Of a DNA stretch of 44,616 bases, positions 36,001 through 42,000 are shown one piece after another. The DNA comes from Escherichia phage phiv205-1, in the sequence record MN340231.1; one strand, given 5' to 3'. A program made the position numbers. The stretch's first letter is position 1; every line of letters begins with the position of its first letter.

Positions 36001-39000
36001 GAAAGCACACAAGACCGAAGCAATAAATCTCCAGTCCGTTCTGCTTATCTTCGATTCATGACAGCCAGTCATCTTTGCCAGACCGCGCTGGGTAAGCGTT
36101 GACAGGTTGATGAGTAAATCAGTTTCAGCGCGATCAATTTCTCGCTGTGTTGGCTTGCTGTAGCTTGCTTGTGCCATTTGTTAATTTTCCTATATTGATA
36201 TTGAGTTATAGCGGCACACCCAATGGATTTGCCGCTGATGTTTGCTCACCCGGTTAGAGGTGAAAGGCCAGAACTGTTAAAGAGCAATTTGCTTATGCCG
36301 CTTGGCGGTAAGCACTTTCTTGATACTTCAGGGCGCCAGCTGTAACGATTTCCAATCGATAGGCGTCTTTCTCTGGGATAACTTCTTTCCACTGAGAGAC
36401 TGCTGCATCGCTAATGCCTAGTGCTTTAGCAACAGCACGCTGGGTTCCGAAGTGGTCAATAACATCTTTTTTGTACATAGACTCGCTCCGAAATTAAAGA
36501 ACACTTAAATTATCCACCAAAGGAATCTTAAGTCAAGTTTATTTAAGATGTCTTAACTATGAATACACAACTGATGGGTGAGCGTATTCGCGCTCGCAGA
36601 AAAGAACTCAAGATTAGGCAGGCTGCCCTTGGCAAGATGGTTGGCGTGTCTAATGTTGCTATTTCCCAATGGGAGCGATCTGAAACTGAGCCCAATGGCG
36701 AAAACCTATTGGCCTTAGCCAAGGCTTTGCAGTGCTCCCCTGATTACCTGTTGAAAGGAGAGGATAGTCTTTCAAACATTGCCTATCACAGCAGGCATGA
36801 TCCAAGAGGTTCGTATCCTCTAATTAGTTGGGTAAGCGCAGGATGTTGGATGGAAGCTGTAGAGCCATATCATAGGCGTGCAATAGATAACTGGTACGAC
36901 ACAACGGTAGATTGTTCTGAAGACTCTTTTTGGCTCGACGTTAAAGGCGATTCAATGACTGCCCCGGCAGGACTGAGTATTCCTGAGGGGATGATTATTC
37001 TCGTCGACCCAGAAGTCGAACCACGTAATGGAAAGCTGGTAGTCGCCAAACTTGAAGGGGAAAACGAGGCGACATTCAAAAAGTTAGTTATTGATGCCGG
37101 TAGAAAATTCCTGAAACCACTCAATCCACAATACCCAATGATTGAAATCAATGGGAACTGTAAAATCATTGGCGTTGTCGTTGATGCCAAGCTAGCAAAC
37201 CTTCCTTAAGGGGCTTTCGCCCCTTTTTTATTTCCCGTTAAAAATCAAAGACAAACTAAATTCACGCCCATAAAATTAAGTTTTCTTCAAAAATGCACTT
37301 GACCAATAAATTAAGAAGTCTTAAATTTAAGCCATCAGCAGGACGCTGGAAGCCAAACGGAACAGATTGGCAGGCTCTTTAACATCGACGGACTCTCAAC
37401 CTAACCGTTGAGACCAGAACTTGAGTGGTTTTGGGGATGGCGCGAATTGCAGCTGCAAGACAGCGATCGAGAAGATAAGCACCTCGACGCGTCATGCGCC
37501 AAAGCCACTTAAAGGAGACCATCATGGTAACCATTGTCTGGAAAGAATCCAAAGGTACGGCAAAAAGCCGCTACAAAGCTCGCAGAGCAGAACTTATTGC
37601 CGAGCGACGCAGTAATGAAGCACTGGCGCGAAAAATTGCGCTAAAGCTCTCTGGTTGCGTCAGAGCAGATAAAGCAGCATCACTCGGAAGCCTTCGCTGC
37701 AAGAAGGCAGAAGAAGTCGAGCGTAAACAGAACCGTATTTACTACCGCAAGCCACGCAGTGAAATGGGTGTGACTTGTGTTGGTCGCCAGAAAATGAAAT
37801 TAGGCAGTAAGCCACTTATTTGAGGTGAGATATGAGTACTAATGGATGGTATTACCTGCATCAAAATGGTGATCTTATTTATAAGCCATCACCAGATGCA
37901 ATTATTGATATTCGTGATTCTGATTTAGCGGTTTGCTCATGGCCATTAGATGTTAGCAGCCGTAAAACTGCATGGGACATTCTGGTTGAGTCCATGGCTC
38001 TTGGTGCCAACAAAGAGCGCGTTAATGAGCTGGCTGGCAAATGGAATTGCAATGATGATGACGCTGATAAATATGCAGAGGTCGTTGGCGTGACAATCGA
38101 GTTAGATGGAAACGCTTGGTGTGCACACGCTCATAATTTTGTTGATTTACAGGAATCTCCTGCTGGATTCGGCAATACCAAACTTGAGACGATGGCTTCT
38201 CTTGCTAAGCAACTTGGTTTATCAGGCGGCCACATGTGGAGAAGTTCATTTTCTGATTTGGTTGAGGCCGCATAGTCGGCCTTTATTTTTGGCATAAATA
38301 ACAGAATAAACACTGCACTGTGTATTCATTCCAACGAGTGAATACACGGAGCAATGTCGCTCGTAACTAGACAGGAGCCGACTTGTTCTGATTATTGGAA
38401 ATCTTCTTTGCCCTCCAGTGTGAGGGCAATTTTTTTTGATGGAGGATATATGAGTGAAGTAACAGATTTAGTTGTTATTGAAAAATCAAATGCAATGACT
38501 GTATTTCAGTCTGCCGACCAGATTGAAGAAATCCTTTAAAAGGTTGAACGTGAAGTTATGTCCTTTGTGCCTGATATCACAACGGCAAAGGGCAGAAAGG
38601 AGATCGCTTCTCTGGCGTATAAAGTTGCGCAGACGAAAACATATCTCGATGGTCTTGGCAAAGACCTTGTTGCTGAACTGAAGGAAATTCCAAAGCTAAT
38701 TGATGCCAACCGCAAGACAGTGCGCGATCGCCTTGATGAACTGAAAGCCAAGGCGCGCCAGCCTCTTACTGATTATGAGGAAGAACAGGCGCGGATTAAA
38801 GCCGAAGAAGAAGCTAAGGCAGCAGCTGAAGCTCTCGCAAAGCAAATTGAGTCTGACCATGAAATAGCGATTTTGATGGATCGCGAATTTGACCGCCAAA
38901 GAGAAGAGGCAAGACTCAAAGCGGAGCAGGAAAAGCGAGAGCATGAAGAACGATTAAAAAGAGAAGCTGAAGAGAAAGCCAGAGCAGAAGCCGAAGCAAA

Positions 39001-42000
39001 GGCAAAAGCCGAAATTGAAGCAGCAGCAAGGCGAGAAGCAGAAGCTAAGGCCGCAGCGGAACGTGCAGAGCGTGAACGCATTGAAGCCGAGCAACGAGCA
39101 CAGCGCGAAGCAAAAGAGGCAGCAGAACGAGCTGAAAGAGAAAAGCAGGCAGCAATTGAAGCAGAACGCAGAAAAGCACAGGAGGAGGCTGAACGAATCC
39201 GTCGCGAGGCTGAAGCAAAAGAGCAAGCCAGAATAGCAGAAGAAAAAAGAATCAAGGACGAAGAAGAGCGTAGAGCAAAGGATAAAGCTCACCGGAAAGA
39301 AGTAAATAACAAAATACTTGCTGACCTTATCAAGGTTGGCGCATCAGAAGATGTTGCTAAAAATATCATAACAGCCATCGTAAAAGGCGAAGTATTCGCA
39401 ACAAAAATAACCTACTAATAAAACCAACATAAGGAACCACCCATGATTTACGCAATCGCGGGAGGCGCTCGCATGGGTGCCTTCCAACTAAATGAATCTT
39501 TACTTGAACGAATCACCCGTAAATTACGTGACGGATGGAAAAGAGTTGAGGTCTTATTATGCGCAATGAAATAGCCATCAATCACCAGATGCTTCGTGCT
39601 GCACAGAACAAAGCAGTAATAGCCAGATTTATTGGTGATTCCAAAATGTGGCTTGAAGCAAATAAAGCGATGAAATCAGCTATCAACCTTCCGTGGTATC
39701 GCAGGAAATGAGTTTTACAGATAACTGGTCAGACGAAGAATTCATTCGTCAGATTAAAGAATTAATCGGTAACGAAGGAGATATTCATGTCACTTGCAAC
39801 CACAGTGAAGGAGAGCAAGTTACAGAGACGCATGTACACGCAGAAAGCTCTCTGGTATCGCCATAATGGTGACCGCGAAGGAATGCGGGTATGCCTTAAT
39901 TTGTCCCGAGTCGAAGTATTAAATCAGCGTTATTTCCTTGGGCCGTGTCCATTCTGAGAGCAATCATATGAGCAAAGAATTTTACGCAAGACTGGCAGCT
40001 ATTCAGGAGAATCTGAACGCGCCAAAGAATCAGTACAACTCATTCGGCAAATATAAATACAGAAGCTGCGAAGATATTCTTGAAGGCGTTAAGCCGTTAC
40101 TGAACGGTCTGTTTTTATCAATCAGCGATGAAGTTGTGTTGATTGGTGATCGGTATTACGTGAAAGCCACGGCAACTATTACCGATGGCGAAAACAGTCA
40201 TACGGCAACCGCTCTTGCACGAGAGGAAGAAAGCAAGAAAGGAATGGATTCTGCACAAGTTACGGGAGCTACAAGCTCTTATGCACGCAAGTATTGCCTC
40301 AATGGTTTGTTCGGCATTGATGATGCGAAAGATGCAGATACAGACGAGCATAAACATCAGCAGAACGCAGCAGCAAAGCAATCAAAACCATCACTTACAC
40401 CTGAACAGGTTCTAAAAGCATTCACTGACGCAGCAATGCAGAAAAACACCGTAGAAGAGCTTAAACAGGCGTTCGCCAAAGCGTGGAAGATGCTCGAAGG
40501 GACGCCGGAGCAGCACAAAGCGCAGGACGTTTACAACATCAGACGAGACGAATTAGAAGGGGCAACTGCTTAATGGCACATTCGATTACAGTAAGACTAA
40601 ACAAACCCGCAAGAGAGTTTCAGGGCGGGGAAAATATCGGATTCAACATCCGTGCTGGCGTTCAGTATTACGATCGCCAGACAAAAAAGAAAGAATGGAC
40701 AAACTACAGCGCCGTTGTATTTGCCAAGCCGGGAGCGCAAGCGGATTACTATCGTAGCGTTCTGGTTGAAGGAGGCATTGTAGAAATTACCGGAGAAAAC
40801 ATCAGGGTTGATGTTTATCAGGGGCAAAATGGTCAATCAATCACTCTTGAATTACTGAATGCAAAGATTGGATTTGCAACTTCAGGAAACAGCCAACAGC
40901 AGCAAAGTAGCAATCATCAAAATAATCCTGAATACGACGATTCCATCCCATTCTGATTTAGAAAAATAAGGATTTAATTATGCCAGCGCCTTTGTATGGT
41001 GCGGATGACCCGCGCCGCTGTTCCGGCAATTCCGTATCGGAGGTGCTGGATAAATTCAGAAAAAACTACGATCGAATAATGTCTCTACCGCAGGAAACGA
41101 AAGAGGAAAAGGAATTTCGCCACTGTATATGGCTTGCAGAGAAAGAAGAACGCGAGCGAATTTACCAGACATCAATCCGACCATTCCGCAAAGCCACATA
41201 TACCCACTTCCCTGAATATATCGACCCGCGCCTGCGTAATTACCGCTCACGCTATGGCGCTATCAGTAATGACTGAGGAATTTACCATGAGAGGACTTGC
41301 TTAAGAGAAAGAGTTTCGGTTCTGTTAATGACAACAAATATCTGAATGCGATGTGGCGGAGTGGGAAGAAATGAAACAAATGTCACTAATTGAGATGGAT
41401 GGTTTTCTGAAAGGTAAATGCATCCCAAGTGATTTAAAGGTTAACGAAACAAACGCTGAATACCTTGTCCGTAAGTTCGGTGAACTTGAATCAAAACTGG
41501 AAACGGCGTTGCGGGAGTGTAGTTCTGCTGGAATCACGATTGATAACCTTGAGGCTAAATGCGCGAAGATGGCTGCTGAAAATACCTCACTTAAGCAATC
41601 TGAGAAGGAATTTAATGACTTTTGTCGTGAGGAGTTTAGCGAATGGGAAGATGATGTTACTGAAACCCCAGCCACCGATGCTTTTCTGGCTGAAGTGCGG
41701 GCGCAGGGGGTGGATGCTGCTATAGAAGCTGCAAAAAATCTGGTGGCCCAAGAATATGAGTATAAGGATTTCAAAGCGGCGCAGAGTGATTGCTGTATGC
41801 ACCCTGGTTCAGACCTGGTAGGGAAGGTTGAAATGACTGAGTGGTTAGTTGACTTTGCTGCCCAGCTTCGCAAAGGAGGCAACCAGTGACTGTATGTCTT
41901 ATTGATAAACGTCGACGTGGGCAACAAATACCATCTGTTGAAATGCCGAATCACACATGGTTTTGCGTACTTGATATCGATGGTATGGATACGTTGGTTA

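Follow-up and report, generated by a model that had tools for sequence, protein, structure and literature searches.

A premature TAA has very probably made a pseudogene of an agt-like early gene in a CUS-3-type prophage of avian pathogenic Escherichia coli

The stretch of DNA analysed here, 44,616 nucleotides of Escherichia phage phiv205-1 (sequence record MN340231.1; referred to as the window), is a P22-like (Lederbergvirus), CUS-3-type prophage located at the argW tRNA and carrying intS, a neuO-type acyltransferase gene and an endosialidase tailspike gene. Over its whole length it is 99.998% identical, with one gap, to the argW prophage of E. coli DE17 (NZ_CP045206.1), and its host lineage is avian pathogenic E. 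coli (APEC). Just upstream of cIII, an ATG at 38450-38452 opens 29 sense codons that end at a TAA (38537-38539), beyond which the same frame remains open to a stop codon at 39416-39418. Another in-frame ATG, codon 37 (Met37) at 38558, lies 108 nt or 36 codons past the first one, and six codons separate it from the TAA. This arrangement raises the question of whether the two pieces are a single gene broken by a nonsense mutation, and whether any functional product can still be made from it. The initial annotation, which was based on this sequence alone, proposed a single gene of ~322 codons with a nonsense mutation or a sequencing error, possibly rescued by reinitiation; every coordinate that it gave holds. 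The interrupted gene and its parts are as follows, with the evidence for each in brackets.

38442..38446, plus strand: Shine-Dalgarno sequence GGAGG of the ancestral start codon (sequence; pairing energy)
38450..39418, plus strand: whole agt-like, Sf6 gene-33-like gene of 322 codons plus stop, now very probably a pseudogene (identity to Sf6 gp33 and HF4s gp36; RefSeq flag)
38450..38536, plus strand: codons 1-29, the sole part translated from the native start, with the conserved N-terminus MSEVTDLVVIEKSNAMTVFQSADQIEEIL (family alignment)
38537..38539, plus strand: premature TAA, a CAA codon for Gln30 in relatives, by C-to-T transition at 38537 (nucleotide alignment; allele counts)
38558..38560, plus strand: ATG of Met37, 18 nt past the stop, a candidate for restarting translation to give a 286-aa product without residues 1-36 (list of open reading frames, ORFs)
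38774..39334, plus strand: codons 109-295, a long Glu/Arg/Lys/Ala-rich tract, predicted to be one continuous helix and varying in length among homologues (AlphaFold model; composition)

Matches to 38300-39450 were found in 328 phage records and 2,261 E. coli genomes; Sf6, HF4s, Huey, Louie and CurroJimenez_Bas106 each have an uninterrupted 969-nt gene at this position. The counterpart in Sf6 is gene 33 (AAQ12223.1; 969 nt, 322 codons), which lies between a tL2A-like terminator and a cIII homologue. Sf6 gene 33 and its equivalents in HF4s, Huey, Louie, Bas106, HK544, mEp213 and IME10 share with the window gene the map position from the tL terminator to cIII and are 98-99% identical to it in DNA, but they run uninterrupted through 322 codons, whereas the window has a TAA at codon 30. 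When translated across the stop, the window gene is the same as Sf6 gp33 and HF4s gp36 (both 322 aa) save for A13S and Q30*. Nucleotide alignment with Sf6, HF4s, Huey, Louie, Bas106 and CUS-3 indicated that codon 30 is CAA, with C at 38537, in 6/6 of these close relatives, and the sole difference of the window at this codon is the C to T change at 38537. Within codons 1-29, four of the six polymorphic sites fall at third codon positions. Past the stop no further lesions were found, and the four differences from HF4s are all synonymous, which indicates that the mutation is recent.

Continuity through this point was also found in more distant relatives. In a 22-member family alignment (69-100% identity; members from E. 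coli, Enterobacter, Citrobacter, Cronobacter and Salmonella), the frame is continuous in all 20 full-length members, and the N-terminus MSE(V/T/I/L)TDLVVIE is present in 22/22 at the counterpart of 38450. By pairwise comparison, the Agt protein of phage phi80 aligns there too, beginning with MSEVTDL and sharing the motif MSE.TDL..IE. Fifteen of the first 29 residues, and 18 among residues 1-36, are invariant in the 22-sequence alignment. The initial annotation had named, as what would refute it, homologues that consistently start at the position equivalent to 38558 with unrelated sequence upstream; instead, all 22 aligned homologues start 36 codons before Met37 and none (0/22) starts at Met37. 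At residue 37 itself, at least 90% of the 22 homologues have Met; two of them (P0117 and P0118) have Arg, and phi80 Agt has Asn. With residues 1-120 as the tblastn query, 190 phage records were retrieved, among them Pseudomonas phages D3 (orf53), JBD44 and PAJU2 and phages of Vibrio, Yersinia, Erwinia and Klebsiella; for phages of other genera, the alignment mostly begins within query residues 1-8. D3 orf53 is ~55% identical over residues 5-111, and a PHROG search matched phrog_1376 over residues 1-322 with E = 2e-110. As judged from these sequence comparisons, the gene belongs with Sf6 gene 33, Pseudomonas phage D3 orf53 and phi80 agt in one family (PHROG 1376). The two pieces are taken as one gene because of homology, not because of chance statistics.

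The distribution of the stop bears on whether it is real. An exact match to the 61-mer centred on the TAA was found in 8 of the 444 complete E. coli genomes that carry the stretch, and all eight are from poultry: IMT5155, DE17, E19035, three '729_' isolates, VTB96815v and GPEC505-623. Among them are a duck isolate from China, the chicken isolate IMT5155, the South Korean APEC E19035 and others from poultry, and the records were deposited separately, the three '729_' isolates having consecutive accessions. The TAA 61-mer is present in 0/33 phage records, and its CAA version was matched exactly in 209 records. A single-base difference is the kind of change that a sequencing or assembly error makes, and the real gene could then be intact; but the identical 61-mer recurs in eight separately deposited complete genomes, and the change is a substitution rather than a homopolymer indel. 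Because the TAA is in eight such records, an error is very unlikely, to the point of being negligible, and this part of the earlier proposal was rejected. Decoding of the TAA on purpose, by programmed readthrough, a suppressor tRNA or other recoding that yields the full-length protein, is hardly credible either. A recoding site would be conserved, but the stop is missing from 33/33 phage records and from 436/444 E. coli genomes with the stretch, and a conserved recoding signal is excluded by its confinement to the eight poultry genomes. Of the stop codons, UAA is the one least prone to readthrough in E. coli. The window's three tRNAs, Arg(CCT), Thr(TGT) and Asn(GTT), are ordinary, with no ochre suppressor among them, and nothing was found in support of purposeful decoding.

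Collectively, these results demonstrated that the nonsense mutation is real and confined to the eight poultry genomes. We put at about 0.93 the probability that the C-to-T transition at 38537 turned Gln30 (CAA) into TAA and thereby made a single accessory gene of the delayed-early leftward (PL) operon into a pseudogene, and no evidence contradicting this reading was met in the analysis. The pseudogene is not new, having already been labelled in public annotation: for the identical sequence in both DE17 and APEC E19035 (O2:K1:H5), RefSeq gives pseudogene status and the note 'internal stop'. The eight poultry E. coli genomes, at least one of them typed O2:K1:H5, share the TAA as a clean marker.

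Whether the gene could still be functional depends on the second ATG. Ribosome-binding strength was computed, for all 758 ATGs of the window, from how well the preceding 20 nt pair with the 3′ end of 16S rRNA. The 20 nt before 38450 pair at -9.3 kcal/mol, among the strongest 1.5% of these ATGs, and those before 38558 pair at -3.6 kcal/mol, a value equalled or beaten by 22% of them; the Shine-Dalgarno sequence that had been called excellent at the first ATG, and the site called weak at the second, were thus fairly described. The ATG at 38558 moreover sits within a predicted local hairpin. Translation from the native, well-initiated start would end after 29 codons, and some of the ribosomes stopping at the TAA may restart at Met37, 18 nt on, to give a small amount of 286-aa protein. 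lacI and T4 rIIB are established examples of translation restarting after an early nonsense codon, with an in-frame ATG, as in the window, only a few codons beyond the stop; unlike those cases, the restart here is a candidate only, with a weak ribosome-binding site. That reinitiation at 38558 yields an active protein without residues 1-36 is a very improbable reading. It draws on the known cases, on the ATG being the first in-frame start past the stop, and on the undamaged downstream sequence, which indicates recent mutation and not protein production. It is met by the unremarkable pairing energy and the hairpin, by the 18 invariant positions among residues 1-36, with the motif MSE.TDL..IE kept in phi80 Agt despite 51% overall identity, and by the start positions of the homologues, which, with Arg or Asn in place of Met37 in some of them, argue that no internal start is conserved. 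Since the lost N-terminus is the most conserved segment of the family, the 286-aa product is unlikely to be fully active and probably has no function; in the structural model described next it would lose helix 12-18 and most of helix 22-39. The nonsense pseudogene thus remains the preferred reading, and the 286-codon ORF is its remnant.

The intact protein was modelled with AlphaFold2 on the intact homologue P0001, giving an all-helical, elongated structure (mean predicted local distance difference test score, pLDDT, 78; predicted template modelling score, pTM, 0.26) with helices at 12-18 and 22-39, a long one at 46-102, a continuous one at 109-295 (pLDDT about 77-92) and a small C-terminal one at 300-311. 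Codons 109-295 encode 77% Glu, Arg, Lys and Ala and 12% hydrophobic residues, and residues 150-280 reach 86% and 6%, respectively; 62 opposite-charge i/i+4 pairs were counted in the 187 residues. The predicted helix of this tract would fit a spacer of the ER/K-type single alpha-helix (SAH) kind. Homologues range from 245 to 333 aa in length, owing to indels in the Glu/Arg/Lys-rich tract, and the intact protein is predicted to consist of a small N-terminal helical domain, the Glu/Arg/Lys-rich helix of ~190 residues and a small C-terminal domain.

Database searches did not supply a name. No Pfam family was matched at E up to 1, the PHROG families matched are all of unknown function, and NCBIfam returned only sub-threshold compositional matches, TolA among them. 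TolA, the RefSeq name, was rejected as a compositional artefact: TIGR02794 scored 9.2 bits against a cut-off of 59.45 (E = 0.62), and the cell envelope integrity protein TolA shares only a long Glu/Lys/Ala-rich helical segment with the window gene. Annotation of the 286-codon remnant as an intact 'TolA' gene is unwarranted. The sequence search of the PDB matched only the Glu/Arg/Lys-rich tract (Zuotin and similar proteins, E >= 0.005), which is uninformative; Foldseek found nothing with E < 1 in the PDB, and in BFVD only unnamed viral entries passed E 0.001 (29-35% identity), from which no function could be read.

A functional lead came from phage phi80. Its agt (PHI80_40, AFV29176.1) encodes 322 aa that are 51% identical to P0001 over the full length (E = 2e-63), and the GenBank record JX871397.1 describes agt as 'anti-toxin for Gam; Mog (modifier of Gam)' and the adjacent gamL as 'toxic without Mog'. 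In that record, agt and gamL (9555-10812) are annotated as an antitoxin/toxin-like pair. phi80 agt is like the window gene in length, in the MSEVTDL motif and in its place in the PL operon upstream of recombination genes. The two differ in what follows: in phi80, agt stands directly before gamL, whereas in the window Abc2 (PF11043) lies ~1.6 kb downstream, and Erf takes the place of RecT/Exo. The possibility that the window's anti-RecBCD gene is a GamL homologue was considered and rejected, the gene being a P22-type Abc2 (PF11043), and no GamL homologue was found in the window. A literature search on phi80 Agt/Mog returned nothing relevant, and the HF4s preprint does not discuss the gene. The gene orders compared were:

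D3 and JBD44: Erf and an exonuclease directly downstream of the gene
Vibrio V039C: ERF, SSB, then the agt-like gene
Yersinia 29.18: agt-like gene upstream of RecE and RecT
phi80: agt upstream of GamL, RecT and Exo
Window and Sf6: the gene, cIII, kil, Erf and a gene in the SSB position (hypothetical in the window); Abc2 comes next in the window

In every phage examined (six further phages, four other genera, plus the window's prophage type), the gene belongs to the early operon and neighbours a single-strand annealing protein with its partners. This suggests that the family may have an accessory role with phage recombination and anti-nuclease functions. The wide occurrence of the family in phages without GamL suggests that the phi80 annotation captures only part of its role.

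Two neighbouring features belong to the same operon.

38408..38437, plus strand: intrinsic terminator in the early-left (PL) operon, shortly before the gene, a hairpin at 38408-38429 followed by eight T (terminator scan)
39443..39574, plus strand: cIII, which follows in the operon (the identical DE17 sequence is annotated here as 'protease FtsH-inhibitory lysogeny factor CIII')

The Sf6 counterpart of the terminator is annotated as 'terminator; homology to phage lambda; tL2A'. A small ORF with its ATG at 38354 crosses the hairpin and T-run of this tL terminator into the gene (38354-38453), and the annotations of Huey, Louie and Bas106 call a 32-codon coding sequence (CDS) at its counterpart (Huey/Louie CDS 806-904). 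As it passes through the terminator hairpin and T-run, this ORF was rejected as a gene and is most likely a gene-caller artefact. Lying behind PL and two intrinsic terminators, as the terminator scan indicated, the agt-like gene would probably be expressed only after induction, under N antitermination. The stop could expose cIII to polarity; N-modified transcription complexes withstand Rho-dependent termination, and N-modified transcription should limit such polarity on cIII, kil and erf. Where the prophage is inherited vertically, selection would not see the loss of the gene, and neutral decay would be the simplest account of it.

Decay of the prophage is evident in the tailspike gene, which is split by an IS66-family insertion sequence (IS) at 6311-8752 (tnpA, tnpB and tnpC; ends GTAAGCG...CGCTTAC) with an 8-bp target duplication, TATCCAGC, in the flanks at 6303-6310 and 8753-8760. 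With its endosialidase tailspike gene split, the prophage is therefore unable to make infectious particles. The junction of the element with the tailspike gene is present in only 3/8 TAA genomes (IMT5155, DE17 and VTB96815v), and in E19035, which has the TAA, the tailspike gene is intact at 2,946 nt. The TAA allele is thus more widespread than the insertion, and the simplest reading is that the nonsense mutation preceded it.

The same gene is also broken in CUS-3, the prophage of RS218, UTI89, IHE3034 and others. CUS-3 is like the window in its argW site, neuO and endosialidase tailspike, and the arm is 99.8% identical; its lesion differs, being a one-base T insertion (+1) at codon 112 rather than Q30*, with CAA kept at codon 30. 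The gene split by this insertion is annotated as two pieces, of 116 and 214 aa (ECRS218_0048 and ECRS218_0049), and PHROGs 17211 and 21365, which match only residues 1-115 and 111-322, respectively, have profile lengths of 116 and 214, the same as these pieces. An exact match to the frameshift site was found in 38 E. coli records, including UTI89, IHE3034, UM146, NU14 and APEC O18. At the level of sequence, these comparisons demonstrated that the same gene was inactivated twice, independently, in sister prophage lineages, that of the window and that of CUS-3/UTI89.

Such a repeated loss might reflect a benefit to K1 lysogens, for example a lower cost of spontaneous induction or an altered anti-RecBCD/recombination module, rather than neutrality. 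We consider this improbable. It draws on the two independent inactivations in prophages 99.8% identical over the arm, Q30* in 8 genomes and the +1 frameshift in 38 records, and on the TAA allele having arisen while the tailspike gene was still intact. However, two hits in a nonessential gene of ~1 kb over decades of clonal descent are compatible with drift, each inactive allele is confined to one clonal group, and the remaining matching E. coli records carry neither the TAA nor the +1 T 61-mer (the screen covered these two lesions). Moreover, the upstream terminators should keep the gene silent in the lysogen.

Several points nevertheless weigh against a neutrally decayed, agt-like gene as the account of this locus. 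That closely related prophages were hit twice in the same gene weakens neutral decay, and selection for loss could have acted instead. A functional restart product from Met37 is conceivable. The functional assignment draws on one GenBank annotation, that of the phi80 record, and its 'Gam antitoxin' label would not be literally transferable, as the prophage has Abc2 and no GamL homologue.

Other features of the prophage were recorded alongside. The integration site argW is tRNA-Arg(CCT) (1009-1083) and adjoins intS (1209-2402), and a homologue of the excision factor torI lies at the opposite end of the prophage (~43.6 kb) beside dsdC, as in KplE1-type elements. At its 5′ end (3288-3415), the neuO-type polysialic acid O-acetyltransferase gene (minus-strand ORF 2642-3418) has 18.3 perfect copies of AAGACTC, and CUS-3 neuO is annotated with 19 copies of its repeat. 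The gene, known to be phase-variable, appears to be in the 'on' phase here, its ORF reading through the repeat. Two tRNA genes borne by the phage, Thr(TGT) and Asn(GTT) (29153-29308, minus strand), lie between the late antiterminator gene and the holin gene. Two partial pseudogenes are flagged in the identical DE17 sequence, a DUF2737 fragment (~41292-41375) and an ead/Ea22-like fragment (~42188-42499); CUS-3 differs there, and these remnants may be mosaic junctions rather than decay. The immI-side accessory block is unlike that of CUS-3 and holds a ClpP-like protease subunit (10718-11254, plus strand) and, on the minus strand, a Panacea-domain protein with a small hypothetical gene (~11300-12174), which could be a toxin-antitoxin or defence cassette.

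Taken as a whole, the locus holds an ordinary nonsense pseudogene in a decaying prophage, which by itself matters little; what is mildly interesting is the repeated loss of a widespread agt-like gene. The family is common across temperate phages of Enterobacteria, Pseudomonas and Vibrio, and the note on phi80 agt is its one functional description. It is unlikely, though worth stating, that the double knock-out in CUS-3 prophages of K1 extraintestinal and avian E. coli reflects selected loss, or a restart product with changed activity. If either were true, it would point to a real biological role for this widespread phage protein, whose long helix is rich in Glu, Arg and Lys, in company with anti-RecBCD and recombination functions.

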